Origin: Bdellovibrionales bacterium
GTDB lineage: Bacteria; Pseudomonadota; Alphaproteobacteria; UBA2400
DNA: 64,000 nt
NCBI GenBank assembly: GCA_039808765.1
Contig: JBDHTQ010000004.1
Location: 74,287 to 138,286 of the forward strand
Reading direction: 5' to 3'
Part shown: in pieces, positions 5,031 to 52,565 of the stretch
Layout: every line of letters starts with the position of its first letter
Numbering within the stretch: position 1 is the stretch's first letter
The notes under the pieces: model-generated
Told to the model about the DNA's origin: nothing
Seen by the model: only the letters and a program-made list of their open reading frames with translations
Database searches by the model: none
Translations under genes and position numbers: made by a program

Positions 5031-5432
5031 ATGTCCGTCGATAAAAAAATGCCCGTTCTGGTTGTGGATGATTTTCCTACGATGCGCAAAATCATTCGCA
5101 ATCTTCTTGAGCAATTGGGCTTCAACAATATTACCGAAGCCGAAAATGGCGCAGATGCGTTACGCAAAATGCGTGATGCGGGGGCGCGGCAACATTTCGG
5201 ACTGATTATTTCTGACTGGAATATGGAGCCGATGACAGGTTTGCAATTGTTGCAAGAAGTTCGCGCTGATACCCATCTTAAAGGAACGCCTTTTATTATG
5301 GTTACGGCTGAGTCGAAAAAAGAAAATATTATCGCGGCAAAAGAGGCAGGCGTAAACAACTATATTGTCAAGCCATTTAACGCGATTACCTTGAAGAGCA
5401 AGCTTGAAGCCGTACTTGGGCCAATTGACTAA
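5031..5432 (+). CDS. cheY: Chemotaxis response regulator CheY (single REC domain)
   Basis: 133 aa, REC domain only. Conserved features: VLVVDDFPTMR, the phospho-acceptor context LIISDWNMEPMTG, and the K-box IVKPF. A GAGAGGG RBS precedes the start. Confidence 0.8.
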   Translation: MSVDKKMPVLVVDDFPTMRKIIRNLLEQLGFNNITEAENGADALRKMRDAGARQHFGLIISDWNMEPMTGLQLLQEVRADTHLKGTPFIMVTAESKKENIIAAKEAGVNNYIVKPFNAITLKSKLEAVLGPID

Positions 5433-5484
5433 GGATCGCCCTAAATCTGGGAATATTTATGCGAACAGTGAAAGGAGAGGGCGA

Positions 5485-6075
5485 ATGAGTCAGCCGCAAC
5501 AAAAAGATGTAAACGGAAAAATGCTTACACGTGAAGAGGTGACGTCAGCCATCACGACCTTGATGGAAAAAGTGACAACTCAAACTGCTGAAGCACAAGA
5601 AAAAGTAGTGCATGATCTCTTTGATCTCGCCGCGCAGATTGACAAGCTTTACAGTGAATTGGCCTCGATGCAGCCGCGTACACTGAAAGACGGTGAAATT
5701 CAGTCGGCGCATGACGAATTGATGGCGGTTGTGAAGGCGACACAAGAAGCGACTTTCTCCATCATTCATGAGGCTGAGGCGCTGGAAAAGCTCTCCAAAA
5801 ATTTACCGCCCGAAGCCGCAAAAGAAGTGGTTCAAAGCGTGACGCGAATTTACGAAGCGTGCGGCTTTCAAGACATTACCGGTCAGCGCATTACCAAAGT
5901 GGTCAAAACACTTAAATTCATTGAAGACCGTTTGGATGTGTTGATTCAAAATCTTGGGGTGCAATTGGGAGATGGCGATGATGTTGCGCAAGGTGAGTCC
6001 GCGTTGCTCAATGGGCCTGCTTTGCCGGGTCAAGCCATTTCACAAGATGAAATTGACAAGCTTTTGGGATTCTAG
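5485..6075 (+). CDS. cheZ: CheZ-like CheY-P phosphatase (start trimmed to MSQPQQ, which has an AAAGGAGAGG RBS)
   Basis: Contains a QDITGQRITKV segment (CheZ active-site helix, D..Q). The C-terminus ISQDEIDKLLGF mimics the CheY-binding peptide found at the FliM N-terminus and the E. coli CheZ C-terminus. It lies immediately downstream of cheY. Confidence 0.55.
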   Translation: MSQPQQKDVNGKMLTREEVTSAITTLMEKVTTQTAEAQEKVVHDLFDLAAQIDKLYSELASMQPRTLKDGEIQSAHDELMAVVKATQEATFSIIHEAEALEKLSKNLPPEAAKEVVQSVTRIYEACGFQDITGQRITKVVKTLKFIEDRLDVLIQNLGVQLGDGDDVAQGESALLNGPALPGQAISQDEIDKLLGF

Positions 6076-20300: not shown

Positions 20301-20367
20301 GTTAGTTACCCGTTCAATTGCAGAGAGTGCAAAAGATACAGGGCGTACCAAAGCGATCATTATTTAA
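17314..20367 (+). CDS. VirB4-family type IV secretion ATPase, DotO/IcmB/TraU-sized (about 1000 aa). An alternative start is at 17359 (MIRFLND).
   Basis: Walker A FAQPGAGKSVLLN, Walker B-like ICYDEFHRT, and the VirB4/TrbE/CagE signature GRKWGVQIVLASQ (R-K...[AS][TS]Q) are present. The 1017-aa length fits DotO/TraU better than the roughly 800-aa VirB4 of T4A systems. Confidence 0.6.
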   Translation: MALWQNDQIKDCGHKMIRFLNDLFASIYLVLRQPLETFIRLETADDEITLVAADGSMVSYIRIDGAKRLIGVNEFEHIVEQAKIKIGSRLDRPGYALQFYFMRDPARVRGELETIMRPNRAAAANLGLDLQDLFEERARHLSKFLAWEECYVVLWTRPAAFGASDLRRELKTRSAIKWVNAPDAQFPFAALGALRTRHKSFVSSIKGAFDELGIRTQILDVHTALRAVRSSLSPSHPSRQWRACLPGDPISMREPRSQRDYSDVLWPPLARQLLTDDAEIINQTRVRIGNLLWSPIDMTMGPAEATEFPRLLRRLSEYDIPFRISWLIESAGAQGAGLRRFLVSVIGFTKTDNKLIKNSLEHLDMMSKSEPVVRLRVSLATWCGIDQPQQRLDEQASALMSAFESWGQCQVSQIMGDPVEGIMSSALGIACASTAPAGIAPLEVVLRLLPWQPASSPFEQGAIMFRTPEGRIWPYQTGSSVTTTWFDLIFAQPGAGKSVLLNALSLGTTLTAGVARLPYIAIIDIGPSSSGLISLIRDSLPPERRYEAAHYRLRMTAEYAINPFDTQLGCRYPLPDERAYLIELLTLLCTPPGQEQPYDGITQLIGFTLDEMYRWRDDKPAGAEPRVYLPYLDHEVDEAIRSYNIHLPKEPYWWDVVEHLFELGLIHVAQLAQRHAVPTITDAVTASRRPQIRSLLEETKLSASTESIINAFERMIASAIREFPIIASITRFDIGGARVCALDLMEVSPQGDESADRQTAILYMLARHTLVRSWWLGDDVIRLIPEKYKSYHTKRLVDIRESPKRICYDEFHRTSKSHSVRSQVVRDVREGRKWGVQIVLASQLLEDFDDAMVDLATGVWILGSTVSEKAIDKAVDRFGLSESARAVMKGKLTGPRAGGAPCLLILSTNDGRYEQHLINTLGPIELWALSTSAEDVLIRNRLYARLGAQRARLILASNYPGGSARAEIRRRVAMATEKGEVDGAATGVVINEIVDELVTRSIAESAKDTGRTKAIII

Positions 20368-33904: not shown

Positions 33905-34681
33905 TTGCATATGGGGCTGGAGGATCGCATGATTGATAGCGACACAGCGGGTTGGTTTGGTGCATTTTCCGGTGTTCTGATTGGCTTAACGCTCGGCAGT
34001 TTTGTCGGTATGGCCAGTTGGCGATGGCCGTTGGGTAAAAACTTTATTGTCCCCTCTTCGTGTCCTGCGTGTCTGCATCGTCTTACGCTGCGTGAGCTTA
34101 TTCCTGTTTTTAGCTGGGTAATTCAAAGAGGGCGTACACGATGTTGTGATCGCCCGCTTTCGTTGCGCTATCCCGCGGTCGAAGCATTGAACGGTATTTT
34201 GCTCGGTATCGTGGGTTGGAATGCGGGCTTGGGTACAGCGTTTATTTTGCTTGCGATGCTGTTTTGCGCTTTGTCAATTGGTGCATTGATTGATCTTGAA
34301 TGGAAAATTATTCCAGACGGAGTAAATTGCGCGGTGGCAATTTTGGGGGTTTGTTGGGTGGTTTTTCTGGCACCACAAGATTGGGGTTATCGCTTGATCA
34401 ATGTTCTTCAGTGTGGAAGCTTGGGTGTTTTTTTGGCGTATTTTTATTCTAAATGGCGAAAAAAGGATATGCTGGGGTGGGGAGATGTCAAGCTTATGGC
34501 AGCTTCTGGCTTTTGGTTTCCGCCGCAGTGGGTTGGTTTTTACTTGTTTTTTGCGGCGCTACAGGGCATCGGCCTGTCCCTTTACTGGCGACGACGCACG
34601 GGCGAGGCTGAATATCCCTTTGTTCCCCCGCTTGCTGTATCGCTTGCGGTATTAATGATCTGGCAAACATTTGTTGATTAA
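33905..34681 (+). CDS. Prepilin peptidase (A24 family, with an N-terminal zinc-ribbon domain)
   Basis: The N-terminal Cys tetrad is C-P-A-C...C-C (PSSCPACLHRL...RTRCCDRP). A polytopic membrane domain follows, carrying the conserved acidic residues (LIDLEWKIIPDG..., GWGDVKLMAA). Confidence 0.65.
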   Translation: MHMGLEDRMIDSDTAGWFGAFSGVLIGLTLGSFVGMASWRWPLGKNFIVPSSCPACLHRLTLRELIPVFSWVIQRGRTRCCDRPLSLRYPAVEALNGILLGIVGWNAGLGTAFILLAMLFCALSIGALIDLEWKIIPDGVNCAVAILGVCWVVFLAPQDWGYRLINVLQCGSLGVFLAYFYSKWRKKDMLGWGDVKLMAASGFWFPPQWVGFYLFFAALQGIGLSLYWRRRTGEAEYPFVPPLAVSLAVLMIWQTFVD

Positions 34682-34735
34682 GTGCAAGTGGTTACCCCTC
34701 TCGACGAAGAGGGAAATATACGGTAAATCTAACTT

Positions 34736-35464
34736 ATGAGTTCAAAAAGCGTGTCACCTCCCGTTAGTTTGGTCAAAAAATCAGACCATTTGGTCCTCCC
34801 TCCGAAAGCGGAAGAGCGCCATTCCACAGTAGATGGACTGGCGCTTGTCATGGCGCGCAATAATTTTTATGTTTTTCACTATCACAAAATTTTGTACATC
34901 GTTTTGGCTCAATTGGCTGGAATTATCATTTTGGTAATGATTTTGTTTCGGTTATTTGAATTTACCGATTCGCGGGATTATTTTTTTCCTGTTCAGCAAG
35001 ACAGCACATTGATCATCGAACGGCCTCTTTATGAGTCCGTTTATAGTGACGACGAAATGCGTCGGTGGGTGGAAGAGGCGACCACCACCACACTCACCTT
35101 TGGTTATTACGATTATCAGATGCGCTGGCAAGATTCGCGCGGTTATTTTACGCCCCAGGGATGGGCCAGCTACAATCGTGCGATGGAAAATGTTTTAAAC
35201 TACATTGGTGTTGGCATAGAAAACTCTGCCAAGAAAGTCATTCTGACCCGTGTTCATCCAGGCAAAGGGGCAGAAATCAAACGGCAGGGAATTTCTAATG
35301 GGGTTTATACGTGGGATTTTACGATCAGTTTGGATGTGACATATTTTGGTACAAGTGAACAAAGTCGGGAGACGTGGAACGTCGACCTTAGAATTGTGCG
35401 CATGCCTTCTAATATCAGTCGCTATGGTCGAGGGATCAAGTGGTTAGTTGCGTTGAAGGAATGA
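34736..35464 (+). CDS. Bitopic VirB8/DotI(IcmL)-like T4SS inner-membrane component, paralogue 1
   Basis: Short cytoplasmic N-terminus, one TM segment (IVLAQLAGIIILVMILF), then a periplasmic domain of about 170 aa. The family-level pattern (FGYYDY...R..FTPQGW...) is shared with the three downstream paralogues. Confidence 0.4.
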   Translation: MSSKSVSPPVSLVKKSDHLVLPPKAEERHSTVDGLALVMARNNFYVFHYHKILYIVLAQLAGIIILVMILFRLFEFTDSRDYFFPVQQDSTLIIERPLYESVYSDDEMRRWVEEATTTTLTFGYYDYQMRWQDSRGYFTPQGWASYNRAMENVLNYIGVGIENSAKKVILTRVHPGKGAEIKRQGISNGVYTWDFTISLDVTYFGTSEQSRETWNVDLRIVRMPSNISRYGRGIKWLVALKE

Positions 35465-35467
35465 TCT

Positions 35468-36205
35468 ATGGCGTTTAAGCTTTTCTCCTCTTCCTCTTCT
35501 TCTGCCGTGCGTAAAGACAGCGAGGTTTTTGCCAAGCCTTCCGATATGCTGATGTCTGTGCAGAGTCAGCAGGATTTTTATTCCATCAGCTATCGTTTTC
35601 TGGTTAAGACCTCACTCTTCTTGGGAACAATCGTTATTGTTTTGATTGTACTCTGTTGTGGAATTGTTATTTTTTCGGCGCCGCATGATCGTTTTTTTAC
35701 CGCATCAGTAGATGGGCGGGTTGAGCGCGTGGTGCCCCTCAATATCGCAACCGCACCGACGGCTGAGATGGCGCAAAAAGTGCGAGATCACATTTCACGT
35801 GCGCTTAATTTTGGTTATCTTGACTATGAGCAACGTCGCGCCGAAAATTTATCGCCCTTTACAGCTTCTGCGTTCGAGAAGCTACAGGATCAGACATTGT
35901 TGCCGTTTGGTTTGCGCGACATGCTCAAAAAGATGCTCGTTTTTAAGACGTCACCGTTAAAATCTCCGGGTGTGTCATTGGTTGCCAATAATGTAGATCA
36001 AAACTTTACCATGCAATGGATTTTCGACGTTCCCGTTAAAATTGAGGTGAGTTCGGATGATCCAAGCGTGAAAGATGCTAATCGACAAGATATCGTCGTG
36101 ATTCGTGTTCTTGTGAAGCGTTCGGCTGATATTGACACGCCTGGCGGGTACATCATCTGGGACATTCAGGGGATAAAAATTATTAATCATGGAGGGGCAT
36201 CATGA
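35468..36205 (+). CDS. VirB8/DotI(IcmL)-like bitopic protein, paralogue 2
   Basis: Same architecture (TM segment LFLGTIVIVLIVLCCGIVIF) and a shared motif (LNFGYLDYEQRRAENLSPFTASAF). Confidence 0.4.
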   Translation: MAFKLFSSSSSSAVRKDSEVFAKPSDMLMSVQSQQDFYSISYRFLVKTSLFLGTIVIVLIVLCCGIVIFSAPHDRFFTASVDGRVERVVPLNIATAPTAEMAQKVRDHISRALNFGYLDYEQRRAENLSPFTASAFEKLQDQTLLPFGLRDMLKKMLVFKTSPLKSPGVSLVANNVDQNFTMQWIFDVPVKIEVSSDDPSVKDANRQDIVVIRVLVKRSADIDTPGGYIIWDIQGIKIINHGGAS

Positions 36206-36978
36206 CTGATTTGAGCTCTTCTGCCAAAAAGCCTGCGGATGTCCAAAAGAAAGCATCAGCAAATGCTACGGTAGCGAAAAAGAATTCGGCCCGTACAGCC
36301 GCCGGCAAAAAAGGGACTCAAAAGCCCGCGTCGAAAAGTGGGCTGAAAAAGTTTGTGTTGCGTTTGAAGGAAGCGCTTTACAGCCAAACACTGCAACCTG
36401 CTGATGTCTCGATGCGGCAGACTTTTTTGGCAACCATCGGGGTTGTGATTTTGATTGCGGGTATTTTTGCTTTTGTTTTTGGCAATAAGCGCGCTGATTT
36501 GCTTTTTGCCAGCCATAGCGGAAAGCTAACGCCCATTCAGTATGTTGACACACCAAGTATTAGTAATGAGGCTGTGATCAACTGGGCCATGGCCGCATTT
36601 ATGGATATCAAAAACTTTAATTTTAACAACATTGATGAACGATTTAATAGCGCATATCGTTATTTTACGCCTGAGGGATGGGACTCTTTCGTGGCCGCAC
36701 TCTACAAGAGTGGTATCATTGACGCCATCAAAACCAATAAACAGTACGTGAGCGCTGTTCCAGGAGGGGCACCAATTATGCAGTCCGAAACAGATGATCC
36801 GGGACATTATTCATGGGTTGTACAAATTCCGTATCAAATGACCACGGTTTGGCGTGATAGTAATGGTACCAATCGGGAAAAAACAGATAGTAAAGTCGCG
36901 ACGATTACGGTGGAGAGTATTCCCACAAACACCTCACTGGCGGGTTACCCCTTCGGGATATCAAGGATAAACGAATAA
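36202..36978 (+). CDS. VirB8/DotI(IcmL)-like bitopic protein, paralogue 3
   Basis: Same architecture (TM segment ATIGVVILIAGIFAFVF) and motif (YRYFTPEGWDSF). It overlaps the upstream gene by 4 nt. Confidence 0.4.
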   Translation: MTDLSSSAKKPADVQKKASANATVAKKNSARTAAGKKGTQKPASKSGLKKFVLRLKEALYSQTLQPADVSMRQTFLATIGVVILIAGIFAFVFGNKRADLLFASHSGKLTPIQYVDTPSISNEAVINWAMAAFMDIKNFNFNNIDERFNSAYRYFTPEGWDSFVAALYKSGIIDAIKTNKQYVSAVPGGAPIMQSETDDPGHYSWVVQIPYQMTTVWRDSNGTNREKTDSKVATITVESIPTNTSLAGYPFGISRINE

Positions 36979-37652
36979 TGACTTTTTCAGGAAAACCCGT
37001 GAGCTTGGTTAAAAAAACCGATATTCAGCGTAATCGGCAATCTTATTTCCGGCTAAACAATAATTTCTTGCGTGATCGTGCGCGTTTTATGGTGGTTCTA
37101 AAGTTTCAGCAATATTTGACTGTGATTCTGCTCTGCATTCTCTTTGGCCTGCTTTTTGGGGTTGTCAGTACCAATTATCGGGTTTTTGCGACAAGTAATA
37201 ATGGAACGCTCGTCCCTAACACGCCGATCGATCAGGAAGTACAGGAAAGCGTGTTGATGACATGGGTTGTAACAACGGTTCTGGAAGCTTCAACGATTGG
37301 ATTTTTCGATTATGAGCTAAGGTTTCAGCAGCTTCGAAGTGCATTTACCGATCAGGGATGGGAATCCTACAACCGCTTTTTACGAACAAGTTTTAATAAA
37401 AAAACCTCTATTCGTGCAGAATTGGAAAATGGCCATATTTTGCTGCAACCCAAAATTTCAACCCCGCCACAAATTTTGCGACGTGGGCTGGTGGGGGGGG
37501 TTATGACGTATCATCTTCAGCTTGAGATTGTTATTCGCGGCGTGTGGAGCGAAGATATGCGAATCCCCAAAATACTGGATTTGATTGTTGAAAGGGTGAC
37601 ACCGGAAATAAATTCAGATGGTTTGGCGATCTCACAGTGGAGAATCTCTTAA
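36978..37652 (+). CDS. VirB8/DotI(IcmL)-like bitopic protein, paralogue 4
   Basis: Same architecture (TM segment LTVILLCILFGLLFGVV) and motif (GFFDYELRFQQLRSAFTDQGWESY). Its start overlaps the upstream stop. Confidence 0.4.
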   Translation: MTFSGKPVSLVKKTDIQRNRQSYFRLNNNFLRDRARFMVVLKFQQYLTVILLCILFGLLFGVVSTNYRVFATSNNGTLVPNTPIDQEVQESVLMTWVVTTVLEASTIGFFDYELRFQQLRSAFTDQGWESYNRFLRTSFNKKTSIRAELENGHILLQPKISTPPQILRRGLVGGVMTYHLQLEIVIRGVWSEDMRIPKILDLIVERVTPEINSDGLAISQWRIS

Positions 37653-37778: not shown

Positions 37779-38786
37779 GTGTGTTGTGGAGTGCTTGAGA
37801 TGTTTCAGAAACGGTTTTTTCTCCTTTTGCTTATGGTTGTTGCGCTAGCGAGCAGCGTGGCTCAGCCTGTTTGGGCGTCTTCGAATATGGGGCGAGGGTC
37901 GTCGAGCCAAGGCGGAGATGTTGGTTTGGAAGGTTTTGTTGAGCCACCACAAATCAGTCAGGAAGAAATTCTTAGAAAAGCCAAACAGATGGCGTTTGAT
38001 AACGCTCTGGATGGAGCAATGCCCCTCTCGCCTGAGCAGATTGCGGCTATTATTCAAAAAATGTCAATCGTGCAGGAAGCTGCTGCGCCAGCCATAGCAA
38101 ATCCCGTGCGCCCTAAGCCAGTCCTAAAGGTTGAAACAATTTCGCTTGACCCTGGTACTCAGCCCCCTGTCATCAAGGTGGCTGCGGGCTATGTGACGTC
38201 GGTTATGATTCTTGATGCCACCGGGGCGCCGTGGGAGATTAAAGATATTGCGTATGTTGGCAAATTTAACGCGGCCATTCCCAACAGTGCGCCGCATACG
38301 TTTCGAATTTTGCCCCTTAATCGCTTTTATGAGGGCAACTTGACGCTGCAGTTGGTGGGGCTTGCAACACCTGTTACCTTCCGTCTTGAGGCCGGTGAAG
38401 ATGAGGTTTATTACCGTTATGATGTGCGGTTACCTGTTATTGGTCCCAACGCTAAGGCCCCGCAATTTAAGTCTGCAAACAGCATGGTGGCCGGCGATTC
38501 TGTTATGATGGCGGTTTTGAGCGGTTATCCTCCCGCTTCGTCAAAGCGGTTGCAGGTCTCTGGGCTTGATGATCGTTCGGCGGCTTGGGAGATTAATGGT
38601 CAAATTTTCTTGCGCACACCCCACACCTTGCTTTCGCCTGCGTGGTCTGGCAGCACGACATCGGGGGATGGTACCACAGTTTATGCAATTCCCGATACGC
38701 CTGTGCTGCTTCTGTCAGATCAGGGGGTTATGGTTCGTGCACGCTTAAGTCGCCCTAAAGGTATTGTTGAGGGAGAAGCTCAATGA
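37779..38786 (+). CDS. Secreted VirB9/DotH(IcmK)/TraN-like T4SS outer-membrane-complex protein
   Basis: Sec signal (LLLLMVVALASSVAQPVWA) followed by a beta-rich sequence (VIKVAAGYVTSVMILD..., LTLQLVGLATPVTFRLEAG). Its position between the VirB8-like and VirB10-like genes matches the conserved B8-B9-B10 / dotI-dotH-dotG order. Confidence 0.4.
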   Translation: MCCGVLEMFQKRFFLLLLMVVALASSVAQPVWASSNMGRGSSSQGGDVGLEGFVEPPQISQEEILRKAKQMAFDNALDGAMPLSPEQIAAIIQKMSIVQEAAAPAIANPVRPKPVLKVETISLDPGTQPPVIKVAAGYVTSVMILDATGAPWEIKDIAYVGKFNAAIPNSAPHTFRILPLNRFYEGNLTLQLVGLATPVTFRLEAGEDEVYYRYDVRLPVIGPNAKAPQFKSANSMVAGDSVMMAVLSGYPPASSKRLQVSGLDDRSAAWEINGQIFLRTPHTLLSPAWSGSTTSGDGTTVYAIPDTPVLLLSDQGVMVRARLSRPKGIVEGEAQ

Positions 38787-40120
38787 GTAATACATCCGAT
38801 TTTAATGAAACACCCGGTAATTCTCGTTACCGTCGCCCGAACAAGGCGAGCAGTCTTTCTCAGATGTGGCAAAATCCAATCGTCAAGCTTGTTATCGTTT
38901 TGATGGTTTTGGGTGGGGCTGCTCTGGCTGGAATGAAGTTCCTATCGGGGGGGCGTGATGAACAGGAAACAGTTTTGGCAACGCCTGGTTCTGGCGGTGG
39001 TGCTGCAAAAGTAGGTAACCAAATAACACCCGAGTATCAGTTGGCTGTTCAGCAAAGTGATATTCGTAACGCTGCAGAAGCGCGTGCAACGGGTGATACT
39101 GCTGTGCCAACACCTTTGCAGACTGCTGTATCATCACCAGAAGTTGACACTGACATGAATGCCGCTCAAGGGGAGGATCCCATTCGTCAGTTTGAAGCCA
39201 TTTTGCAGAAGGATGGACAGGGAAAGAAGAGTAATTTGCCTCCTCCACAAACAACGCAGCCGGCTGTTCAGGTTCCGCCTGAAGTTTTAAAGCAGCTTAC
39301 GGAAGCGATGGCTAATCAGATTGGTGCGATGATGAAGACGTGGACACCTCCCACAATGTCTCAGGTTACATCGAACATCAAGGAAGAGGACATTTTGATG
39401 CGCAATACGCCGAAGGAAATTTCGGTCGACAGTTTGAAGCCTCTGACCGAGTCTAAACCGGTTGTGACTGCGGGTAGTGTTTATTATGGGCAGATGATTA
39501 TTGAAGCCAATTCTGACATTCCGGGCCCGATTATGGCGCAAATTCTCACTGGACCTTTGGCCGGAGGGCGTGCAATCGGTCAGTTTCAAACGTTTCGCAA
39601 CCATCTTTTGATTCGCTTTGATACGGTTTCACTTGGCACAAATCAGATGAGCGTGGATATTATCGCCCTTGATCCCAATACTACTCTTGGTGGGATTGCG
39701 AGCGAGGTTGACCCGCGTTACTTCCAACGTGTTTTGCTGCCTGCTGCTGCTGCGTTTATTTCTGAATATGGTCAAGCGCTTTCAGAGCCGACCAGCACGG
39801 TAAGTGTTTCAGGGACGGATGGTACCAACATCTCTACTTCGACCAATGAGCGCGATGCAAAAGATGCGATGTATGCTGGTATTGGTGCTGCATCAGAGAA
39901 GATCGAGCAATTCGTGACAGAAGAAGCATCGTCAATTAAGCGCCTTGTTCGCGTTGGCGTGGGCACGCCAATCGGCATGTTTTTTGTGAAGCCTGTTTGC
40001 GGCTTTAGCGGGCAGTGTAATGCGGGGTCAGCGGTAACGCCTGCTTCTTCGCCTTCCCCTTCCCCCGTATCTGTGAGTGGTGTTGTTTCTCCGACATCGA
40101 CATCTTATATTCAACGTTGA
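38783..40120 (+). CDS. VirB10/TrbI/DotG-family T4SS protein
   Basis: N-terminal TM segment (IVKLVIVLMVLGGAALAGM), then a Pro/Gln-rich linker. The C-terminal domain aligns block-by-block to VirB10/TrbI: AGSVYYGQMIIEANSDIPGPIMAQI, GGRAIGQF, LIRFDTVSLGTNQMSVDIIALDPNTTLGGIASEVDPRYFQRVLLPAAAAFIS. Confidence 0.65.
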   Translation: MSNTSDFNETPGNSRYRRPNKASSLSQMWQNPIVKLVIVLMVLGGAALAGMKFLSGGRDEQETVLATPGSGGGAAKVGNQITPEYQLAVQQSDIRNAAEARATGDTAVPTPLQTAVSSPEVDTDMNAAQGEDPIRQFEAILQKDGQGKKSNLPPPQTTQPAVQVPPEVLKQLTEAMANQIGAMMKTWTPPTMSQVTSNIKEEDILMRNTPKEISVDSLKPLTESKPVVTAGSVYYGQMIIEANSDIPGPIMAQILTGPLAGGRAIGQFQTFRNHLLIRFDTVSLGTNQMSVDIIALDPNTTLGGIASEVDPRYFQRVLLPAAAAFISEYGQALSEPTSTVSVSGTDGTNISTSTNERDAKDAMYAGIGAASEKIEQFVTEEASSIKRLVRVGVGTPIGMFFVKPVCGFSGQCNAGSAVTPASSPSPSPVSVSGVVSPTSTSYIQR

Positions 40121-40130
40121 GGTTTTAGTG

Positions 40131-42086
40131 ATGAGAGCTTTTGGTAAACGCGGCGGATCAAATAATCAAAACGACGAGGGATTTGAGGACGAAAACCTTC
40201 CCCCGGAAGATTATTATCAAGAGGAATTTTCTGCTTCTACGCTCGATTCTGAACAAGGCGATGATGACTGGGATTCTTTGTCTGATAATGAAGATTCTGT
40301 CCTCTCTCAAGCTGAGGAAATGAAACATCGTTCCTCGCCCATTGCGCGCATGATTCCTTGGTTTGCCTTGGGTGTGATTGTCGCGGGGGGAATTGTTTAC
40401 TACTTGACGGCCAATATGGGTTCCGGTGTGATTCAGCCGGGAAGTGCTATAACTGCTACCCCTGTTGCCCCGTCAACCAATACTACAGATGAACAATTTG
40501 CCAAACCTATGACATCGCGCGCAACGCCCAGCAGCACAAGTGGTGGGGCAGCGTCAACATCTTCTGGTTCTCCCGAGACGTCAGCATCAGTGTCCATGCC
40601 GGCCTTGCCATCGGATACTGCTTCTGCAAGTGCTCAAACCACCCGATCCGGCTCGTTTATCCCCTCTGACGACGGCACAATTAAATGGGTAGAGCCTGTT
40701 CAATCTCCTGACCAGACGGCCAATAAGGGCAATGTTACGGAGACAGGGACAGCGACGTCTGCATCTACAACAGCTACTGCTGCCACTAACACACCCAGTT
40801 CGGTAACAGAGCAAACTGAGACATCACAACCGCAAACAACGCCGATCATTGGATCACAAGAAACAGTGGAAACCCCGGTTACCACACCGCCTGATTTTTC
40901 TAAGCAGATGGCTTCTATTAATTCCTCATCTGTGACGGATAAACCGGTCACGCCAAACTCACAAAATTCTTCAGCTGCGCAGGAAACTGTCCCATTAAAA
41001 GAACAAACCACGCCGACCGCACCTGCGACACCTAAAAATATTTCGACGGCCAATGACCAACATGCTTCTGAAACAGCTGTTGCCGTGACGCCCTCGACGT
41101 CATCTTCTGACGCCGCGACAAACGAGCGTTCGCCTGAGTCGCTCTTGATGAGTGCGATGAAGTCAACAGCAGATCAGGCAAAAATCCCGCCTGTCGAGAC
41201 GCCTGCAATGACGGCAACAACCGCTCCCACGACGGCCCTTCCAGCAGCGGCTATTCCAACAACGGCAAATGTTAAACCGACGGGCGCTTCTTCTGTACCA
41301 TCTTCATCAGAAGCACCGATACCCAGTGCTGTCACGTCGTCGGGGGAGGCTTCGTCTGCTACATCGGCTCCCTCGCCGTCAGGATTAACGTCAACCTTGG
41401 TTCCGACGTTAGCACCAACAACATCGGTTACAGCACCTGTTTCATCTCAGGGGCTGGGCGTAAGTTCTTCCATTTCGTCGTCCGTCGATGCAACAAAAAC
41501 ACCATCAGCTTCAACTGAAGATGTTGATGATCTCAATTCACGCATGGCTGTGCTTGAGCAGCGATTAGGTGACCTGACGCAGGCATTGGATAAAGTTGCT
41601 GTGCAGAGTACCTCAAAATCATCGGCTACCTCTGAACAAAACACTCAAGCGATGGCTCAGGCTGGTGCATTAAACACTCAGCTTTCTGCACAAATTAAAT
41701 CGCTGCAAAGTGAAATGCAGTCTCTTAAGTCGCAGGTAAAAGATCAAAGCCGGGCGGCCGTGCCGTCATCTGTCACAACATCACCTGTTGTAACATCGGT
41801 TGAAAATAAACAGCCACCCAAAACAATTCCGCTTTTGCCATCCAAGCCCCAGACGGAATCACACAAAGTGGCAACTGCATCGTCCCCTGCTCAAGCCAAT
41901 TCTGCTAAAGCGTGGGAACTGCGTGCGGCGCAGGCTGGCGAGGCTTGGGTAGCGCGTAAAGGCTCAGACAATTTGCAGCATGTCACGGTCGGTCAGTCCG
42001 TGAGTGGTTTGGGTCGCGTGACCAGTATTCGTGAGAAAAATGGGGCATGGGTTGTCGTGACAACAGGCGGTACGCTGCGTCAGTAA
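40131..42086 (+). CDS. Ser/Thr/Ala/Pro-rich bitopic protein with a C-terminal coiled coil and a small beta domain, possibly the DotF/IcmG/TraP analogue
   Basis: TM segment (IPWFALGVIVAGGIVYYL) followed by about 380 aa of S/T/A/P-rich low complexity. A coiled coil (LEQRLGDLTQALDK...LQSEMQSLKSQVKD) and a compact C-terminal domain follow. The gene sits immediately after the VirB10-like gene, as dotF follows dotG. Confidence 0.3.
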   Translation: MRAFGKRGGSNNQNDEGFEDENLPPEDYYQEEFSASTLDSEQGDDDWDSLSDNEDSVLSQAEEMKHRSSPIARMIPWFALGVIVAGGIVYYLTANMGSGVIQPGSAITATPVAPSTNTTDEQFAKPMTSRATPSSTSGGAASTSSGSPETSASVSMPALPSDTASASAQTTRSGSFIPSDDGTIKWVEPVQSPDQTANKGNVTETGTATSASTTATAATNTPSSVTEQTETSQPQTTPIIGSQETVETPVTTPPDFSKQMASINSSSVTDKPVTPNSQNSSAAQETVPLKEQTTPTAPATPKNISTANDQHASETAVAVTPSTSSSDAATNERSPESLLMSAMKSTADQAKIPPVETPAMTATTAPTTALPAAAIPTTANVKPTGASSVPSSSEAPIPSAVTSSGEASSATSAPSPSGLTSTLVPTLAPTTSVTAPVSSQGLGVSSSISSSVDATKTPSASTEDVDDLNSRMAVLEQRLGDLTQALDKVAVQSTSKSSATSEQNTQAMAQAGALNTQLSAQIKSLQSEMQSLKSQVKDQSRAAVPSSVTTSPVVTSVENKQPPKTIPLLPSKPQTESHKVATASSPAQANSAKAWELRAAQAGEAWVARKGSDNLQHVTVGQSVSGLGRVTSIREKNGAWVVVTTGGTLRQ

Positions 42087-42412: not shown

Positions 42413-42901
42413 ATGAGCAATTTAGGAGAAAAATTTAAAGAATCGGCTGAAAAGTTCAAAAATTACATCCAAGGAAATAAAACGACAGTACGTATGTTTT
42501 GTGGTGTGTCCACAGCTTTTCTTTTCGGAGCAGCTTTAGATCATACCCTGATGTGGGCAAGTATGCTTGCACCAACTTCATTAACACTGCCTAGCGCAAC
42601 CATTAGCGTTGCGTTGGGTTTCGGCGCTGCTCGCCAGATTGATAAGGGGTTAAAATTATTGCCAAATGATGATAATAACAGTATTTTAGGCTCGCCAAAA
42701 GCAGGATTTATAGATGCCGCTGGATTCGCCGTATTGTCAGGCATGGCAACGCATATGGGTTTTGCGTTATCGTTGTGTGAGTTTCCAAAAGCATCTGTAT
42801 TCGGCCTCCTTGTAGGGGGAATTTGTGGCGCTACCGCAGTTGCTTTGTTTCGTGATAGTGCGCACGCGCTGCGCTCAAAAGTTTCTCGAGCAATGCATTA
42901 A
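42413..42901 (+). CDS. Small polytopic membrane protein in the T4SS-like operon (about the size of IcmC/DotE)
   Basis: 162 aa with 3-4 hydrophobic helices and an AGGAG RBS upstream. No family recognised. Confidence 0.3.
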   Translation: MSNLGEKFKESAEKFKNYIQGNKTTVRMFCGVSTAFLFGAALDHTLMWASMLAPTSLTLPSATISVALGFGAARQIDKGLKLLPNDDNNSILGSPKAGFIDAAGFAVLSGMATHMGFALSLCEFPKASVFGLLVGGICGATAVALFRDSAHALRSKVSRAMH

Positions 42902-43216: not shown

Positions 43217-44191
43217 GTGCCTATGGATTGCACTAAAAAAGATTTTTTCGCTTCAAAATCAAATGGATGCCTAACGTTCAGTGTGGCTCTAATCAGCGTG
43301 CTGTTCTTTGCTTTTCCTGCATTCGCTGATGAAGATTTGGGCGCAAGCATTCTTAGTGTCGTTAATTCGGGTTACAGTAATGTTCCAATTATTCTGACGT
43401 ATTTCTCTTACATTGCGGGGCTTATGCTTGGTCTGATCGGTTTAAATAAAATAAAAACCCATTTCGTTGGTGGGAATCAGCCTCTTTCTGGTGGATTGTG
43501 GCATCTGGTTGGCGCATCGCTGCTAATTTCTTTGCCCACAGCATGGGGCATGATTGTTCGTTCTCTCAAAACGGGTTCTGTATCGGGTTCCACGCGGGCT
43601 GTGGCCGATTTAAGTGGGGCAGGTGGGGGCACAGGGAGCTTATCGCTTGACCAAATGATGATCGACTTGGTAACCAATATCCAAGCACCGATGGGCTACC
43701 TTTTGTGGAGCTTGAGTGCAGTATTGGGACTATTCTTCCTAACCACCTCATTTTTGCGAATGGCCAAAAACTCTGGTCAGGATGGACCGCGTAACTCACT
43801 GGGTGCGGGAACACTCAGCCGAGTAGTTATCGGCGGGTTACTTCTTTCATTCTCGGCGACGGCAGACATTGTAACGACCACCCTGTTTGGTACCAATGTT
43901 CTTAAATTTTCATCAATGGATCTGAGCGGTTCGGTAGATGCGAATGCGTTAGACCATATTAATGCGACCATTTCGGCTGTGTTGGTTTTCGTTCAGATTC
44001 TTGGGTTCATTGCTTTTATGCGTGGTTTTTTGATGCTTCGTGCCCAGTTTGACGGTGGTAACGGAAGTACAGCGGCTGCTTTTACCCATATTATTGGTGG
44101 AGCGGTGGCGTTTAATATTTCCTCATTTATGGGGATTATGGAAAAAACGTTCTGTGCAACCGCTGGGTGTAGCGTCTTTGAATTTAACTGA
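43217..44191 (+). CDS. Polytopic membrane protein with a signal peptide, last gene of the T4SS-like operon
   Basis: 324 aa. A signal-like N-terminus (FSVALISVLFFAFPAFADE) is followed by about 6 TM helices and Gly-rich loops. A strong terminator follows. Confidence 0.3.
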   Translation: MPMDCTKKDFFASKSNGCLTFSVALISVLFFAFPAFADEDLGASILSVVNSGYSNVPIILTYFSYIAGLMLGLIGLNKIKTHFVGGNQPLSGGLWHLVGASLLISLPTAWGMIVRSLKTGSVSGSTRAVADLSGAGGGTGSLSLDQMMIDLVTNIQAPMGYLLWSLSAVLGLFFLTTSFLRMAKNSGQDGPRNSLGAGTLSRVVIGGLLLSFSATADIVTTTLFGTNVLKFSSMDLSGSVDANALDHINATISAVLVFVQILGFIAFMRGFLMLRAQFDGGNGSTAAAFTHIIGGAVAFNISSFMGIMEKTFCATAGCSVFEFN

Positions 44192-44212: not shown

Positions 44213-44236
44213 GGGGGCTTCGGCCCCCTTTTTTTG
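44213..44236 (+). terminator. Rho-independent terminator ending the T4SS-like operon
   Basis: GGGGGCTTCGGCCCCC hairpin followed by TTTTTTT. Confidence 0.55.
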
Positions 44237-48292: not shown

Positions 48293-49300
48293 TTAAAGTT
48301 CTGGGAACATCACATCTGCCATATATGCTGCCACATTACGGGGTCGGCCGATGGCGGGCATGTGGTGCATGGCGAGACCGGGGTTGGCATTAATCTCGAT
48401 GATCGCATGGGTAACCGTAGTCTGATCGACGGTAATGTCCGGAGTAAGAAAATCGATCCCTACACAGGGAAGACCATCGAATGTCTGCAGTGCTCTTTTT
48501 GCAATGCTCAACACCGAGGAATGAATCACATCTGTCATGTCCGTTGATACGCCGCCTTGAGCTAGATTAGAAATGAGTCGCAGATAGATTTTTTCACCTT
48601 TATTCGGGACGTGATCAAAGTTCAGGCCCTTCTGCTGCAGGTAATTCAGCACGATATCGTCGAGGGCTATGGGGCAGAGGGCACTACCCTCTTTCTTTTT
48701 GACAGACTCCCGCCGGAGACTTTCCTGCTCAGCTAGAGCTCGGATATTGTTTTTGCCGTCACCTATTACATGCGCGGGATCGCGAAGTAGAACTGCGTAG
48801 TCTCCCTTGGTGGTGATGAAGATGCGGTACTCGTTGCCGTGAATATGCCGTTCGACGATAAAGAAAGATTGCTCTCCTGCCTGATGGAGAAGGGCGTAAA
48901 TTGCATCCTGCAGCTGTTCTCTGTTTTCGAGGCCGGAGCGAACTAACTCGCCATGCGAGCCGGTATTCGGTTTGACCACAAGCGGGAAGCCGATTTCGTC
49001 GCCATAATTCAGCGCTGCCTCGATATCGCCGCCCGTGAAGATTCGTCCCTCGGGCACATACAGCCCACTCTCTTCCAGAAGTAATTTAGCCGTGTGTTTG
49101 TCCGCCGCTAACGAGGACGGCAGATAAGGCACGATTTTGCTAGCCCGGTCGAGCAGATACTCAGTCGTTCCTTTATAAGACACCCGCATAAGCTCGAGAT
49201 TGTAGTCGAGCGAAGTGACATTCGCCCCGCGGCGCACGAGTTCTTCAACCAGGAGACGCTGATTGGTATGAAGACAGCTGAGATCAAGTGTACTCGTCAC
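48293..49300 (-). CDS. ATP-grasp ligase (RimK / LysX / graspetide-ligase-like)
   Basis: 335 aa with a GTG start. ATP-grasp blocks present: FPLVVKPNTGSHGELV, HIHGNEYRIF, IIEINANPG. Confidence 0.65.
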   Translation of the reverse strand: MTSTLDLSCLHTNQRLLVEELVRRGANVTSLDYNLELMRVSYKGTTEYLLDRASKIVPYLPSSLAADKHTAKLLLEESGLYVPEGRIFTGGDIEAALNYGDEIGFPLVVKPNTGSHGELVRSGLENREQLQDAIYALLHQAGEQSFFIVERHIHGNEYRIFITTKGDYAVLLRDPAHVIGDGKNNIRALAEQESLRRESVKKKEGSALCPIALDDIVLNYLQQKGLNFDHVPNKGEKIYLRLISNLAQGGVSTDMTDVIHSSVLSIAKRALQTFDGLPCVGIDFLTPDITVDQTTVTHAIIEINANPGLAMHHMPAIGRPRNVAAYMADVMFPEL

Positions 49301-49417
49301 TTACTGCGGACGAGGCCGACCAGTGACGGGACGCGGATCAACGTCAAGTTTGCGCGGCGAACGGCCACGGGCAGGTCGGCTGCGATAATTTTCAGTCGGA
49401 TTATTATCTTCAGACAT
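49301..49417 (-). CDS. Candidate 38-aa Pro/Arg-rich peptide gene (possible RiPP precursor/substrate), below the 60-aa ORF-track cutoff
   Basis: Translated by hand: MSEDNNPTENYRSRPARGRSPRKLDVDPRPVTGRPRPQ*. An SD-like GAGGTG lies 5 nt upstream of the ATG. The TAA stop abuts the GTG start of the ATP-grasp gene, and the ORF fills the gap between the methyltransferase and ATP-grasp genes. Confidence 0.4.
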   Translation of the reverse strand: MSEDNNPTENYRSRPARGRSPRKLDVDPRPVTGRPRPQ

Positions 49418-49476
49418 TTGGCACCTCACTCTACAGGCAATTCTAGCATCTGGCAAACGGGTTTTGCAAGCAGAAA

Positions 49477-50154
49477 TTATCCTTCAAAAATAAGCACGTT
49501 ATGACCGATTTCAGCAGTGTTAACTTTTTGGCCGACCGCTTCGCCCCATATACCGCCGATGATGTGGCGAGCATGGGTAATATCCCTGAACTGAAAGCTC
49601 GTTGCCAGCCGGGCGGTGATCCGAAAGCCGGCTACGTCCTGAAGCCAGGCGTTATAAGCGATTGAAACGGGGATTTTTTCTCTTATCTCTTCAAACATGC
49701 CGCTGGCATCGTTCTCAACCAGAAAAATTCTACCGCCGGGATGTAAAGAGGCGCGGACGCAGTTCAGAATATCTAGTCGCTTCGGCTCACTGCTAATGGT
49801 ACCAAGCATCCAGCAGGCGAGCGCGATATCGTATTTTCCGAGGTTGGGATTTTCAGCAGCATCGGCGTGAATGAATGAGATGTTTCTAAAGTTTCGGGTC
49901 TGCGCCCGCGCTATCGTCAGCTGCGCCTCAGCAGCGTCTAGCCCACAGATATGCTGCGCATGGGGAGCAAAAAGTCTTAGATATTTTCCGGTGCCGCAGC
50001 CGAGATCAAGCATGGTCTTGTTTTCGATGTGGGGTAATAGCCAATTAAAGACCTGGCCTCGGGCATCTTCAGCTGCGCAAAACTCTTCATAAAGATTGGC
50101 CTTCTGGTAATAGACTTCTGATTTTTCTTGAAGGTTGTTCTTGGAATAGCTCAT
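49477..50154 (-). CDS. Class I SAM-dependent methyltransferase (start trimmed to MSYSKNN, an ATGA overlap with the upstream stop)
   Basis: SAM-binding motif I LDLGCGTGKYL plus a motif II/III acidic loop. Length about 225 aa. Confidence 0.65.
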   Translation of the reverse strand: MSYSKNNLQEKSEVYYQKANLYEEFCAAEDARGQVFNWLLPHIENKTMLDLGCGTGKYLRLFAPHAQHICGLDAAEAQLTIARAQTRNFRNISFIHADAAENPNLGKYDIALACWMLGTISSEPKRLDILNCVRASLHPGGRIFLVENDASGMFEEIREKIPVSIAYNAWLQDVAGFRITARLATSFQFRDITHARHIIGGIWGEAVGQKVNTAEIGHNVLIFEG

Positions 50155-52565
50155 GCTTTCTTTTCCCATAGCAGAATGATGTCTTTGTTGTTGTCTTCCC
50201 ACGCGCTTTGAATCTCGATTTCCGTGTAAACGCCGTCGGCGTAATGACCGAAAGCTTTATGGCGAGCTTCCGAGTCGTTGATCCGGCTGCGCACGTTTGA
50301 TCCATTCATGTTGTAGGCGTCAAAGACGTAGCCGAGAATCATCTGACCGCCGGGCCGAAGGCGTTTAGCCATTGGCGTAACGATCTTCGACCGGAACTCT
50401 TCAAGATAATCACTGTCATACATGTGGTGCGCGTAATCGCTGAGGTTGGAGAGGAGGATGGTGTCGTAGCTGTCTTCCGTCTGTGCCATCTCTTCAGCTG
50501 TAAGGGTATTCCATTTCACCTCTAGCTTATGGCAAGCCGTCTGTGCTTTTGCATAGGCATCTATATTGGCGAGATAGGGATTGTTGAGAGCAATCCGCTC
50601 GCCTGACTGCTGTTTGCGGAACAAAGCCGAATGGCGCATAGCTGAGCCATCCATGTTGAAGAATTTGTAGGCGCTATCAAAGAAGTATCTGGCAGAAAGA
50701 CTTAATCCATCCCTGCAGATTTGATATCTATCGTGCTCCATAAGCAAGAGGAAATTCTGGAACTCTGAAATTCCGAAAGTATGGAGAGCTGCCAGCTTGA
50801 GTTCAGCCATATATTTTGCAAGCAGGTTGACGTCAAAATTTACAACGCTCTTCGCCCCAGCCATACAGACGTTGATCAATTGATCGCCCGATGCACCGAC
50901 GGTCAGGACGTCCTTGCCAGAAAAGTCGAGAAAGTTAAGATACCCGCCGATATTCTCTGTTGCGAAGGCATAGACAGGGCTCGCCTTTGAATAGCGCCCT
51001 CCGCGCTGAAGATTGGCGATCAGATCGCCTTCGAACAAGGAAGCGATGAATTCGGCCTCGGCAAATTGGGGAACGATTTGCATCGGGCAGCGATCAAGTC
51101 CTGATCGGGTAAGGCCAGTCACTAAATGCCGGAATGAAGTGTTCTCACGGTCCTCAAGAATTTCCCGTAGGGTGTGATCATGTAGCGTCTTTTCTGCGAT
51201 ATAAGTCGGGCGGCGCTCCGCCACCCACGTGCAGGGTGAAATACGCCCTTTATGGTCGATAAAGAGGAACCGCTCTCCACCAGGGCAGGCGCCGCAGCCC
51301 TCCTTCACCGTTTCGGCGAAGTTGCCGTTGACTTTGATGCGGCCCGAGAATTCCGCGCGAAGCGCCTCGATCTCAGCCTTCATTTCGCTGATGGGACGGT
51401 CACACAACATGGCTGGACGGTTGCGCATGCGTCCGACCGGTTCCATCAGGGAATAAATCACCTCATTGCAACCAAGCTCAAAACAGAATTCGGTGATTGC
51501 CCGCATTTCGTTCTGATTGTTCCGGTAAAGAACGCAACCAATACGCACATAAATTCCGTTGTCTACAAGATGTTTTAAGCCATTAATCGTCGGTGTATAA
51601 GTTCGCTTTCCACGTATTGCTTCCTGCAGCTCTTGCGTATGCCCGTCGAGGCTGACATGAACCATATCAAGCTTCAGAGAAGCTAGTTCCTGCACCACCT
51701 CTGCCGTGATGAAGGCGGCGTTTGTCGAGAGGTCCGTTCGGAAGTTCTGCTGGCGAGCATACTTCAGAATATCCATAAGATCGGGTCGCGTAAACGGCTC
51801 GCCCCCCGTGATCTTGAGATGCGTGAACCCGCATTCCTTCAGACCATCGATTGTCTCGTAAATTTTGGCCGTGGAAAGTTCATCGGCCTGCGGGCGCGAG
51901 GTCGAGCTGAAAATGCAGTAACGGCAGCCGTAGTTGCAGGTATTAGTTATTTCCCAGATGACTCGGCCGCCATGGCGGGGAATGCGGAAGAGGCAGAACG
52001 ACGTTGCAGGATCGTAATCATCGGCGCAGAGTTCATAGGCTTTCTCTATATTATCGTCGATCAACCCAGCGGTTGTATCCACAAGTTGATATGGTTTGCC
52101 ATATTGTTCAAGAAGAGTGATTATCTCTGACGTTGGCATTTGCCTCTTTAAGCGCGCATCAATCTGCGCGTTCGAAAGATCTCCGCCTTGGAGGCGCGCC
52201 ATGCGCTCAATATCATTGCAATGCACGACGATGACACCGTCGACCATATCGAGATATCCATCCTCGATAAGTCGCGCCCATTCTAGGACGACAAGACCTT
52301 CCGCAGCCTGGACTTGCCGTTGCGCCTCGGTGCGCGTAGACTCGCTTACTTTCTCCCACAAAGCCTCAAAATGATCGGGGTCGGAGCCACCGATAGTGCG
52401 GCGTATCGTGTCGATGGAAACAAGAGTGGCTCCCACTTTTTTGACCAGACGATCCGCCAGCGTCGTTTTTCCCGCTCCCATGCCGCCCGTAATGCCGATG
52501 ACGCGTGAGGCCATTCTAATATTCCCAGCCAAGGCCATAGCGCAGCGGGCAGAGCGACACGACAT
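50151..52565 (-). CDS. Three-part fusion protein: a P-loop kinase-like N-terminus (dephospho-CoA-kinase-like), a radical SAM core with a SPASM/twitch-like Cys-rich extension, and a C-terminal domain of unknown function
   Basis: The N-terminal VIGITGGMGAGKTTLADRL is a CoaE/AAA-kinase P-loop. The radical-SAM cluster motif is TNTCNYGCRYCIF (CxxxCxxC). An auxiliary Cys region follows (CGACPGG...ISPCTW). A further roughly 280-aa domain brings the total to 804 aa. Confidence 0.55.
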   Translation of the reverse strand: MSCRSARCAMALAGNIRMASRVIGITGGMGAGKTTLADRLVKKVGATLVSIDTIRRTIGGSDPDHFEALWEKVSESTRTEAQRQVQAAEGLVVLEWARLIEDGYLDMVDGVIVVHCNDIERMARLQGGDLSNAQIDARLKRQMPTSEIITLLEQYGKPYQLVDTTAGLIDDNIEKAYELCADDYDPATSFCLFRIPRHGGRVIWEITNTCNYGCRYCIFSSTSRPQADELSTAKIYETIDGLKECGFTHLKITGGEPFTRPDLMDILKYARQQNFRTDLSTNAAFITAEVVQELASLKLDMVHVSLDGHTQELQEAIRGKRTYTPTINGLKHLVDNGIYVRIGCVLYRNNQNEMRAITEFCFELGCNEVIYSLMEPVGRMRNRPAMLCDRPISEMKAEIEALRAEFSGRIKVNGNFAETVKEGCGACPGGERFLFIDHKGRISPCTWVAERRPTYIAEKTLHDHTLREILEDRENTSFRHLVTGLTRSGLDRCPMQIVPQFAEAEFIASLFEGDLIANLQRGGRYSKASPVYAFATENIGGYLNFLDFSGKDVLTVGASGDQLINVCMAGAKSVVNFDVNLLAKYMAELKLAALHTFGISEFQNFLLLMEHDRYQICRDGLSLSARYFFDSAYKFFNMDGSAMRHSALFRKQQSGERIALNNPYLANIDAYAKAQTACHKLEVKWNTLTAEEMAQTEDSYDTILLSNLSDYAHHMYDSDYLEEFRSKIVTPMAKRLRPGGQMILGYVFDAYNMNGSNVRSRINDSEARHKAFGHYADGVYTEIEIQSAWEDNNKDIILLWEKKA

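Follow-up and report, generated by a model that had tools for sequence, protein, structure and literature searches.

Four tandem full-length DotI/IcmL paralogues in a chromosomal Dot/Icm-type locus of a Micavibrio-like alphaproteobacterium

Why would a type IV secretion system carry four different full-length genes for an inner-membrane subunit that is usually encoded once or twice? The question is raised by a 64,000-nucleotide stretch of contig JBDHTQ010000004.1 (positions 74,287 to 138,286 of the forward strand; assembly GCA_039808765.1), hereafter the window, from a bacterium labelled Bdellovibrionales and assigned by GTDB to the Alphaproteobacteria (UBA2400). Four consecutive genes of the window, referred to here as P1 to P4, encode proteins of the DotI/IcmL family, a first-pass annotation having described them as VirB8/IcmL-like. 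The copy numbers that this annotation took as usual agree with the literature, in which TraM of plasmid R64 is single, Legionella DotI is accompanied by a truncated DotJ, and Coxiella has tandem DotI genes (PMC4454188; PMC11338181). The evidence presented below points, with fair but limited confidence, to P1–P4 being translated together, having non-redundant roles and forming one hetero-oligomeric complex of the inner membrane, which would anchor the ATPase of a type IVB secretion system (T4BSS).

The four proteins almost certainly belong to the DotI/IcmL/TraM family. All of them exceed the gathering score of Pfam PF11393 (T4BSS_DotI_IcmL; 27.7 bits) with E values of 8e-13 to 5e-27, far past chance (Table 1). 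The NCBIfam model NF038072, an IcmL/DotI equivalog of the Legionellales type, scores P1–P4 at 83, 46, 106 and 61 bits, and since its curated equivalog cut-off of 175 bits is reached by none of them, they are best regarded as family members and not as Legionellales equivalogs. A VirB8 Pfam match was absent for all four paralogues at E<=1, and their likeness to VirB8 of type IVA systems lies at the level of the fold only. The coordinates and lengths originally given for the four consecutive open reading frames (ORFs) were reproduced, as was the shared architecture: each protein has a single strong hydrophobic segment (residues 52–70 in P1, 50–68 in P2, 75–93 in P3 and 47–65 in P4; 19-residue windows with a mean Kyte–Doolittle value of 2.6–3.2), preceded by an N-terminal tail of 46–74 amino acids (aa) and followed by a C-terminal domain of 159–177 aa. 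By analogy with DotI, the N-terminus would face the cytoplasm and the C-terminal domain the periplasm. None of the four is truncated in the manner of DotJ/IcmM, as all are 224–258 aa long and have complete periplasmic domains. In pairwise comparison the paralogues are 17–32% identical, and the motif noticed earlier is indeed common to them, with R130, F138 and T139 (P1 numbering) invariant within FG[YF].DY..R...FT..GW.

The NTF2-like fold of VirB8, which the first reading had predicted for the periplasmic domains, was found for every member of the array. The crystallized DotI chain 3wz4 aligns directly with P1 (E=2e-12), P3 (E=4e-16) and P4 (E=3e-6), and the fold of these three was taken from that alignment, whereas the structure of P2 was predicted. 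A direct sequence search of the PDB with P2 returned only noise; a profile of six P2 orthologues matches DotI at E=1e-5 over the whole domain. The AlphaFold2 model of P2, with a mean predicted local distance difference test score of 80.3 and values above 90 across most of the domain, consists of a long helix (residues 25–69) followed by an alpha+beta domain. Foldseek comparison of this model with the PDB gave template modelling scores of 0.84 for R64 TraM (3wz3), 0.80 for DotI and 0.77 for the 'IcmL-like' lpg0120, with CagV, the VirB8 proteins of Rickettsia and Agrobacterium, and R388 TrwG among the lower matches (CagV, A. tumefaciens VirB8 and TrwG at ranks 10 to ~45). Neither a different fold nor a lack of homology among the four, the two outcomes that had been named as refuting, was thus encountered.

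The array is not confined to a single assembly. A search of 5.8 billion protein clusters returned ten homologues of P1 and six of P2, and every sufficiently long contig carrying them (at least 10 distinct contigs) also contains a prepilin peptidase gene, four PF11393 genes and icmK. The four ORFs are intact in the window (locus L001) and in loci L002, L003, L006, L007, L008, L087, L088 and L089, while L004, L005, L086 and L090 are interrupted by contig ends. To place these loci among their relatives, we used loci anchored on IcmK in 80 species-representative genomes (the scan being seeded with a 9-sequence IcmK alignment, as a 19-sequence alignment proved too divergent) and located IcmL genes with a lineage-specific hidden Markov model (HMM). 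Four copies occur only in the clade of the window, whose IcmK proteins (~328 aa) are 54–76% identical; about 30 of the related loci have two icmL copies and about 40 have one. In a neighbour-joining (NJ) tree of IcmK, the four-copy loci form one clade whose sister is L009–L011, and loci with one copy, a stub plus one copy, two copies (of two types) and four copies fall in separate clades, one of the two types of two-copy array being nested separately among single-copy loci.

In an NJ tree of 88 IcmL proteins, P1, P2, P3 and P4 each form a clade of their own with bootstrap support of 100/100. These separate clades, together with the intact genes found across loci, argue that the quadruplication is old and that all four copies have been kept; the genes thus appear to derive from old tandem duplications of a single icmL that have persisted as four orthologous lines. 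Profile comparisons with hhalign give only a hint of their origin: in two-copy loci, it is the downstream copy that P3 resembles and the upstream one that P1 and P4 resemble. The same data bear on the notion that the array consists of one functional icmL and pseudogenizing copies or gene-calling artefacts. The strong divergence and lowest family scores of P2 could be taken in its favour; set against it are four full-length ORFs of similar size on at least nine independent contigs whose IcmK proteins are only 54–76% identical, the full bootstrap support of each paralogue clade, and the confident DotI-like model and conserved motifs of P2 itself. This conservation effectively refutes decay or artefact, which we consider extremely improbable and have rejected.

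Some loci of the wider survey depart from this pattern. In L072, L080 and L084, icmK and icmE are present and no IcmL was detected in the 5–10 kb upstream, which contain no runs of N; the gene may have moved or diverged past detection. L055 has two adjoining IcmL matches (positions 4430–5887; 193 and 239 aa) that group together in the tree beside the single copy of L061, and may represent a very recent duplication or a gene split by a frameshift or by the assembly.

Where the four paralogues differ from one another was followed by comparing their cytoplasmic tails with those of better-known relatives. Single-copy relatives carry a juxtamembrane cytoplasmic motif with the consensus VVVRNEFYRDGYR, RNEFYRDGYR standing just ahead of the transmembrane (TM) helix. 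A Piscirickettsia plasmid protein annotated as IcmL/DotI starts with LADSALTQVKLRNDFYRDNFRR, its phenylalanine being residue 15 (LRNDF15YRDNFRR). F15 is a conserved residue of both DotI and DotJ in Legionella, where the tails of the two proteins bind DotO in two-hybrid assays and the DotI(F15E) substitution abolishes the polar localization of DotO as well as intracellular growth (PMC11474061). Across eight four-copy genomes, P1, P2 and P4 have an aromatic residue at the DotI F15 position in all eight, and their tails are conserved to the same degree as their periplasmic domains: the P1 tail has the motif DGLALVMARN.FY (identity of 54% in the tail and 49% in the periplasmic domain), the P2 tail [FY].RD.YR (40% and 38%), and the P4 tail VSL[VA]K[KR][ST]D with a degenerate N.[FY]LQD (40–42% and 45%). 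The tail of P3 is basic and variable, with no motif and an identity of 23% against 47% in the periplasmic domain.

The absence of the RN.FYRD/F15 motif from P3 is also visible in profile alignments, since that to NF038072 begins at model position 2 for P1 and at position 22 for P3, and in 5 of 6 genomes the TM helix is where P3 begins to match the single-copy HMM. At the same time, P3 has the best family scores for the periplasmic domain and is in this respect the most canonical member of the array. The copy that overall looks most ancestral is P1, which scores 149 bits with the single-copy HMM, and P2 is the most divergent, with the lowest family scores. Judging from these alignments, the paralogues diverge most in their cytoplasmic tails, and do so in a paralogue-specific manner.

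The genes are packed tightly enough to suggest that they are expressed together. Overlapping stops and starts, previously described for the whole array, were found at the P2/P3 junction (ATGA at 36202–36205) and at the P3/P4 junction (TAATG at 36978), while P1 and P2 are separated by a 3-nucleotide (nt) spacer (TGAtctATG). The junctions in the window therefore measure -4, -1 and +3 nt, and those of orthologous loci lie between -4 nt (an overlap) and about +9 nt (a gap), so that tight packing is itself conserved and speaks for co-expression. No internal promoter or terminator signal above background was found between the four icmL genes. The 54 nt that separate the stop of the peptidase gene from the start of P1 contain a short hairpin without a T-run (CCCTCT-cgacga-AGAGGG, 34690–34710).

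These features help to weigh a second explanation, according to which P1–P4 are alternative or interchangeable subunits, each forming a homo-oligomer and used according to condition, prey or host to give variant machines. As R64 TraM works as a homo-hexamer, the homomer would be the ancestral state, and the paralogues evolve faster than IcmK (mean pairwise identities between orthologues of 48%, 38%, 43% and 43% for P1–P4, compared with 64% for IcmK), as expected if their partners vary. However, the close junctions and the lack of internal signals favour joint expression, all four genes are retained in every four-copy locus of sufficient length, and P3, devoid of the tail motif that DotI needs for ATPase positioning, would make a poor stand-alone DotI. 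We therefore regard interchangeable subunits as unlikely.

The surroundings of the array indicate the machine to which it would belong (Table 1). P1–P4 occupy the position of a DotI-type gene, directly upstream of dotH/icmK and dotG/icmE: 126 nt separate P4 from icmK, after which comes the DotG/TraO-like gene, whose product matches the DotG C-terminus model NF033900 (E=7.5e-36) and TraO (E=7e-23), in both cases under the equivalog cut-offs. The next gene encodes a membrane protein of 669 aa, which runs from an acidic N-terminus through one TM helix, a low-complexity linker of ~350 aa rich in S, T, P and A, and a coiled coil to a small C-terminal domain; its true start is probably near 40131, its homologues come after icmE in most related loci, and its gene position suggests that it may be DotF. 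The 162-aa ORF further downstream has no homologue in related loci at E<1e-4, while the TraQ-like gene that closes the cluster is conserved downstream in related loci.

Table 1. Features of the window discussed in the text (positions counted from the first nucleotide of the 64,000-nt stretch)
Feature	Position	Strand	Match or remark
Flagellar genes (rod protein, FliL, FliM, DUF6468, MgtE_N-domain protein, FliI) and CheZ-like gene	831-4795, 15865-17208		
1017-aa Walker A (GAGKS) protein	17314-20367	+	between fliI and PBP2 gene
Prepilin peptidase, A24 and N-terminal domain	33905-34681	+	PF06750 86 bits, PF01478 53 bits
IcmL/DotI paralogue P1, 242 aa	34736-35464	+	PF11393 68.5 bits
IcmL/DotI paralogue P2, 245 aa	35468-36205	+	PF11393 48.7 bits
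IcmL/DotI paralogue P3, 258 aa	36202-36978	+	PF11393 94.9 bits
IcmL/DotI paralogue P4, 224 aa	36978-37652	+	PF11393 64.7 bits
IcmK/DotH outer-membrane core subunit	37779-38786	+	PF12293 222 bits
IcmE/DotG/TraO (VirB10-class)	38783-40120	+	PF03743 TrbI 41.5 bits
669-aa membrane protein, icmG/dotF gene position	40077-42086	+	weak coiled-coil Pfam matches only
162-aa ORF within the cluster	42413-42901	+	no Pfam or NCBIfam match
TraQ(IncI1)-like/DUF6750 membrane protein, last gene of the cluster	43217-44191	+	NF033883 E=3e-12; DUF6750 weak
Intrinsic-terminator-like hairpin	44213-44228	+	6 G-C pairs, then T7 run; before metK

A candidate for the ATPase lies 14 kb upstream of the array, apart from the remaining T4BSS cluster. 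The 1017-aa Walker A protein has no Pfam, NCBIfam or PDB sequence match; it is 74% identical to the product of a 1005-aa gene in L007 situated three genes downstream of the TraQ-like gene, and a tblastn search gave matches to it in 3785 plasmid records (3222 being conjugative), most of which extend over at least 80% of its length. Because of this synteny and these plasmid matches, we read the protein as a VirB4-class ATPase of the TraU/IcmB(DotO) type; it lies alone there and, by analogy with Legionella, would be the likely cytoplasmic partner of the IcmL tails. In L007, a gene for a DotB-like ATPase adjoins the cluster as well. The type IVB genes present in the window are thus those for IcmK and for the DotG/TraO-like, TraQ-like and TraU/IcmB-like proteins, and what remains is ordinary chromosome (flagellar genes, mreBCD, the PBP2 gene, recO, clpB, folD and a radical-SAM cluster).

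From this combination, a mechanism may be proposed in which four bitopic subunits of the DotI/IcmL family (VirB8 class) serve one chromosomal Dot/Icm-type (type IVB) system. That a single machine is involved is suggested by the position of the array directly upstream of single icmK, icmE and TraQ-like genes, by the terminator at the end of the cluster and by the fact that the window also contains the ATPase gene; non-redundancy is suggested by the retention of four intact genes in every long-enough four-copy locus and by the full support of each clade. All four subunits have retained a TM helix and an NTF2-like periplasmic domain, and their tails would be specialized. The oligomer, which is homomeric in R64 and R388, would become hetero-oligomeric, as it is in the Legionella DotI2:DotJ1 complex, with dedicated paralogues filling structurally non-equivalent positions. 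Such a complex would hold the DotO-type ATPase in place and would also constitute the DotI layer of the periplasm. In favour of a single complex are the tight coupling of the genes, their retention throughout, the separate orthologous lines and the three tails that are as conserved as the periplasmic domains. The original proposal of a hetero-oligomeric ring or of specialized subunits is consistent with the four clades, the paralogue-specific tails and the close packing of the genes; co-assembly, its stoichiometry and the contact between the tails and DotO are what we infer beyond these observations.

Two more specific versions of the single hetero-oligomeric complex may be formulated. Only tentatively can it be suggested that each outer DotO protomer is clamped by the three tails of P1, P2 and P4, with P3 contributing mainly its periplasmic domain. 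A bolder version is unlikely: in it, P1, P2 and P4 form an obligate heterotrimer whose three different tails grip the outer DotO protomers, P3 builds periplasmic arches, and the complex, having arisen along with capture of the peptidase into the operon, marks a distinct T4BSS architecture that Micavibrio-like predators or parasites direct against prey or hosts.

Several considerations weigh against one hetero-oligomeric complex. Four paralogues do not fit simply onto a trimeric unit. The role of the tails in DotO binding is extrapolated from Legionella, where DotJ(F15E) is without phenotype (PMC11474061), so that an aromatic residue at this position is not proof of function; moreover, the tail motif is partial in P2, which has lost RN, and degenerate in P4. 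The existence of a single T4BSS is read from within the 64-kb window, in which none of DotB, DotC/D, DotL/M, DotA and IcmT was seen. Finally, the deep relationships among the paralogues, and with them the order of duplication, have NJ bootstrap support of only 40 or less.

The prepilin peptidase at the head of the array invites a further question, namely whether part of the array has left secretion altogether. A homologue of this full-length A24 peptidase immediately precedes the icmL genes in every four-copy locus reaching that far (the equivalent genes being those of L002, L003, L005–L008 and L086–L089), and in none of the ~70 loci with one or two copies. On account of this neighbourhood, it had been suggested that P1 could be examined for a paralogue-specific role. 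P1 proves to be both the best conserved of the four and the one most like the ancestral type, and no prepilin-type cleavage motif occurs in it. The prepilin-type signal G/[FM]TL.E was found neither in P1–P4 nor in any ORF of at least 80 aa in the window, and the IcmL paralogues and their close neighbours were consequently rejected as substrates of the peptidase.

One or more paralogues might nevertheless have moved to another envelope function, either with the peptidase in a type IV pilus or as a free-standing NTF2-like periplasmic protein. Consistent with such a move, the peptidase joined the operon in exactly the four-copy clade, P3 has lost the DotI tail motif, and Legionella has an IcmL-like protein, lpg0120 (PDB 5cnl), distinct from DotI. 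Pilus genes also occur near the cluster in two relatives: in L089 (12088–14990) the T4BSS cluster is directly followed by three Flp pilin genes together with those for a TadV peptidase, RcpC and a secretin, and a 202-aa gene of L088 (18428–19036), ~6 kb downstream of the T4BSS genes, has a faint match to PilS, the IncI thin-pilus pilin. Yet all four genes are fixed between the peptidase and icmK in every locus, neither the TM helix nor the periplasmic motif of the family has been lost from any of the four proteins, no prepilin-type signal was found in them or in window ORFs of at least 80 aa, and there is no evidence of DotI-family proteins acting in pilus systems. A transfer of this kind therefore seems rather improbable, and the single secretion complex remains the interpretation that we carry forward.

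With regard to the host, the same proteins are present in the metagenome-assembled genome GCA_039808745.1, and the nearest IcmK relatives among species-representative genomes are variously labelled Micavibrio sp., Alphaproteobacteria, Rhodospirillales and Bdellovibrionales/Pseudobdellovibrionaceae. The mixture of labels results from the placement of Micavibrio in Pseudobdellovibrionaceae by the NCBI taxonomy. The flagellar and CheZ-like genes of the window fit a motile Micavibrio-like organism. A gene cluster on the reverse strand (48293–53910), encoding an ATP-grasp protein, a methyltransferase, an 804-aa kinase-like/radical-SAM/SPASM fusion and a B12-binding radical-SAM protein, may be a locus for peptide or cofactor modification. 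According to the genome paper of M. aeruginosavorus ARL-13, that organism has neither a type III nor a type IV system (PMC3189940), and pT4SSi without relaxase has been described in seven marine Micavibrionales genomes (PMC9418006); the copy number of IcmL is mentioned in neither paper. A putative chromosomal Dot/Icm-type system is now documented in Micavibrio-like bacteria, for whose cultured representative the genome paper reported no type IV secretion system.

Among the closest known systems is the DotI–DotJ (IcmL–IcmM) pair of Legionella pneumophila, in which bitopic paralogues are likewise encoded side by side and directly upstream of dotH–dotG. Their products form a 2:1 hetero-complex, DotI2:DotJ1, whose tails, containing F15, bind the VirB4-type ATPase DotO (PMC4454188; PMC11474061). 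In the R388 structure, outer VirB4 subunits are bound by VirB8 trimers, which the mixed Legionella trimer resembles (PMC11474061); this likeness implies that the unit has non-equivalent positions. The Legionella pair differs from the present array in that DotJ is a 94-aa stub without a periplasmic domain, whereas here all four members are full-length and it is P3 that has lost the tail motif; in addition, there are four members instead of two, the host belongs to the Alphaproteobacteria, and the expansion is independent. In Coxiella burnetii, a second full-length DotI takes the place of DotJ (PMC4454188; PMC11338181), so that IcmL.1 and IcmL.2 resemble the present array as full-length tandem duplicates in a Dot/Icm system lacking DotJ, and differ from it in being two and in belonging to the gammaproteobacterial Legionellales. 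A transposon mutant of icmL.2 is defective in intracellular replication (PMC4117601), which indicates that at least this copy is required; no analysis of paralogue-specific tails in Coxiella IcmL was found in the literature searched.

Within the alphaproteobacterial T4BSS radiation to which the window belongs, the sister loci L009–L011 also have an extra DotI paralogue directly upstream of their sole full-length icmL. It is a stub of 81–120 aa (L009:1779–2024; L010:5647–5931; L011:5341–5703) comprising a tail with the motif FYRR.YR, a TM helix and a few residues of the periplasmic part; these loci have no attached peptidase. DotJ-like stubs, confined to these three loci, were recovered by an HMM search of ORFs of at least 40 aa, whereas a regular-expression search for further ORFs with the tail motif found none. 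That of L010 is 94 aa long, as is Legionella DotJ, and the stubs look like DotJ-like proteins that would have arisen independently of, and convergently with, the latter.

More distant comparisons concern homomeric systems and systems with unrelated subunits. TraM of the IncI plasmid R64 shares the family, the fold and the position upstream of traN/traO (the icmK/icmE homologues) with the array and differs from it as the product of a single gene that forms a homo-hexamer (PMC4454188) in a conjugative system; a tblastn search of plasmids made beside this comparison gave 249 places in 241 records. R388 TrwG/VirB8 has the same NTF2-like fold and bitopic topology. Its type IVA machine contains six trimers, each supplying a trimer of tails to one outer VirB4, so that one product fills three non-equivalent positions (PMC11474061; review PMC12857230); the assembly is homomeric, and there is no sequence-level match to P1–P4. 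The pairs PrgD/PrgL of pCF10 and TraH/TraM of pIP501 likewise provide more than one VirB8-class subunit per machine, with differing predicted oligomeric states (PMC12857230), but they belong to the ALPHA and GAMMA domain classes, serve a monoderm envelope, are not tandem copies of the same architecture and are unrelated in sequence. No description of a four-copy IcmL array was found in the literature searched, subscription journals being outside its coverage. What is new here is the presence of four full-length paralogues where one or two have been described, the loss in one of them of the ATPase-docking motif and not of the periplasmic domain, and the attached peptidase.

The number of VirB8/DotI protomers, and which of them contact the VirB4-type ATPase, are still being settled by cryo-electron microscopy and genetics. 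The series of loci with one copy, a stub plus one, two and four copies suggests that DotI heteromerization has evolved repeatedly, an argument for the functional importance of asymmetry within the DotI/VirB8 unit. The four-copy array may therefore provide a natural system for dissecting this asymmetry, P3, which naturally lacks the ATPase-docking motif, being a built-in contrast. Positions that R388 fills with one product and Legionella with two could, with four distinct full-length paralogues, be tagged, deleted and mutated separately, turning a problem of symmetry into one of genetics.

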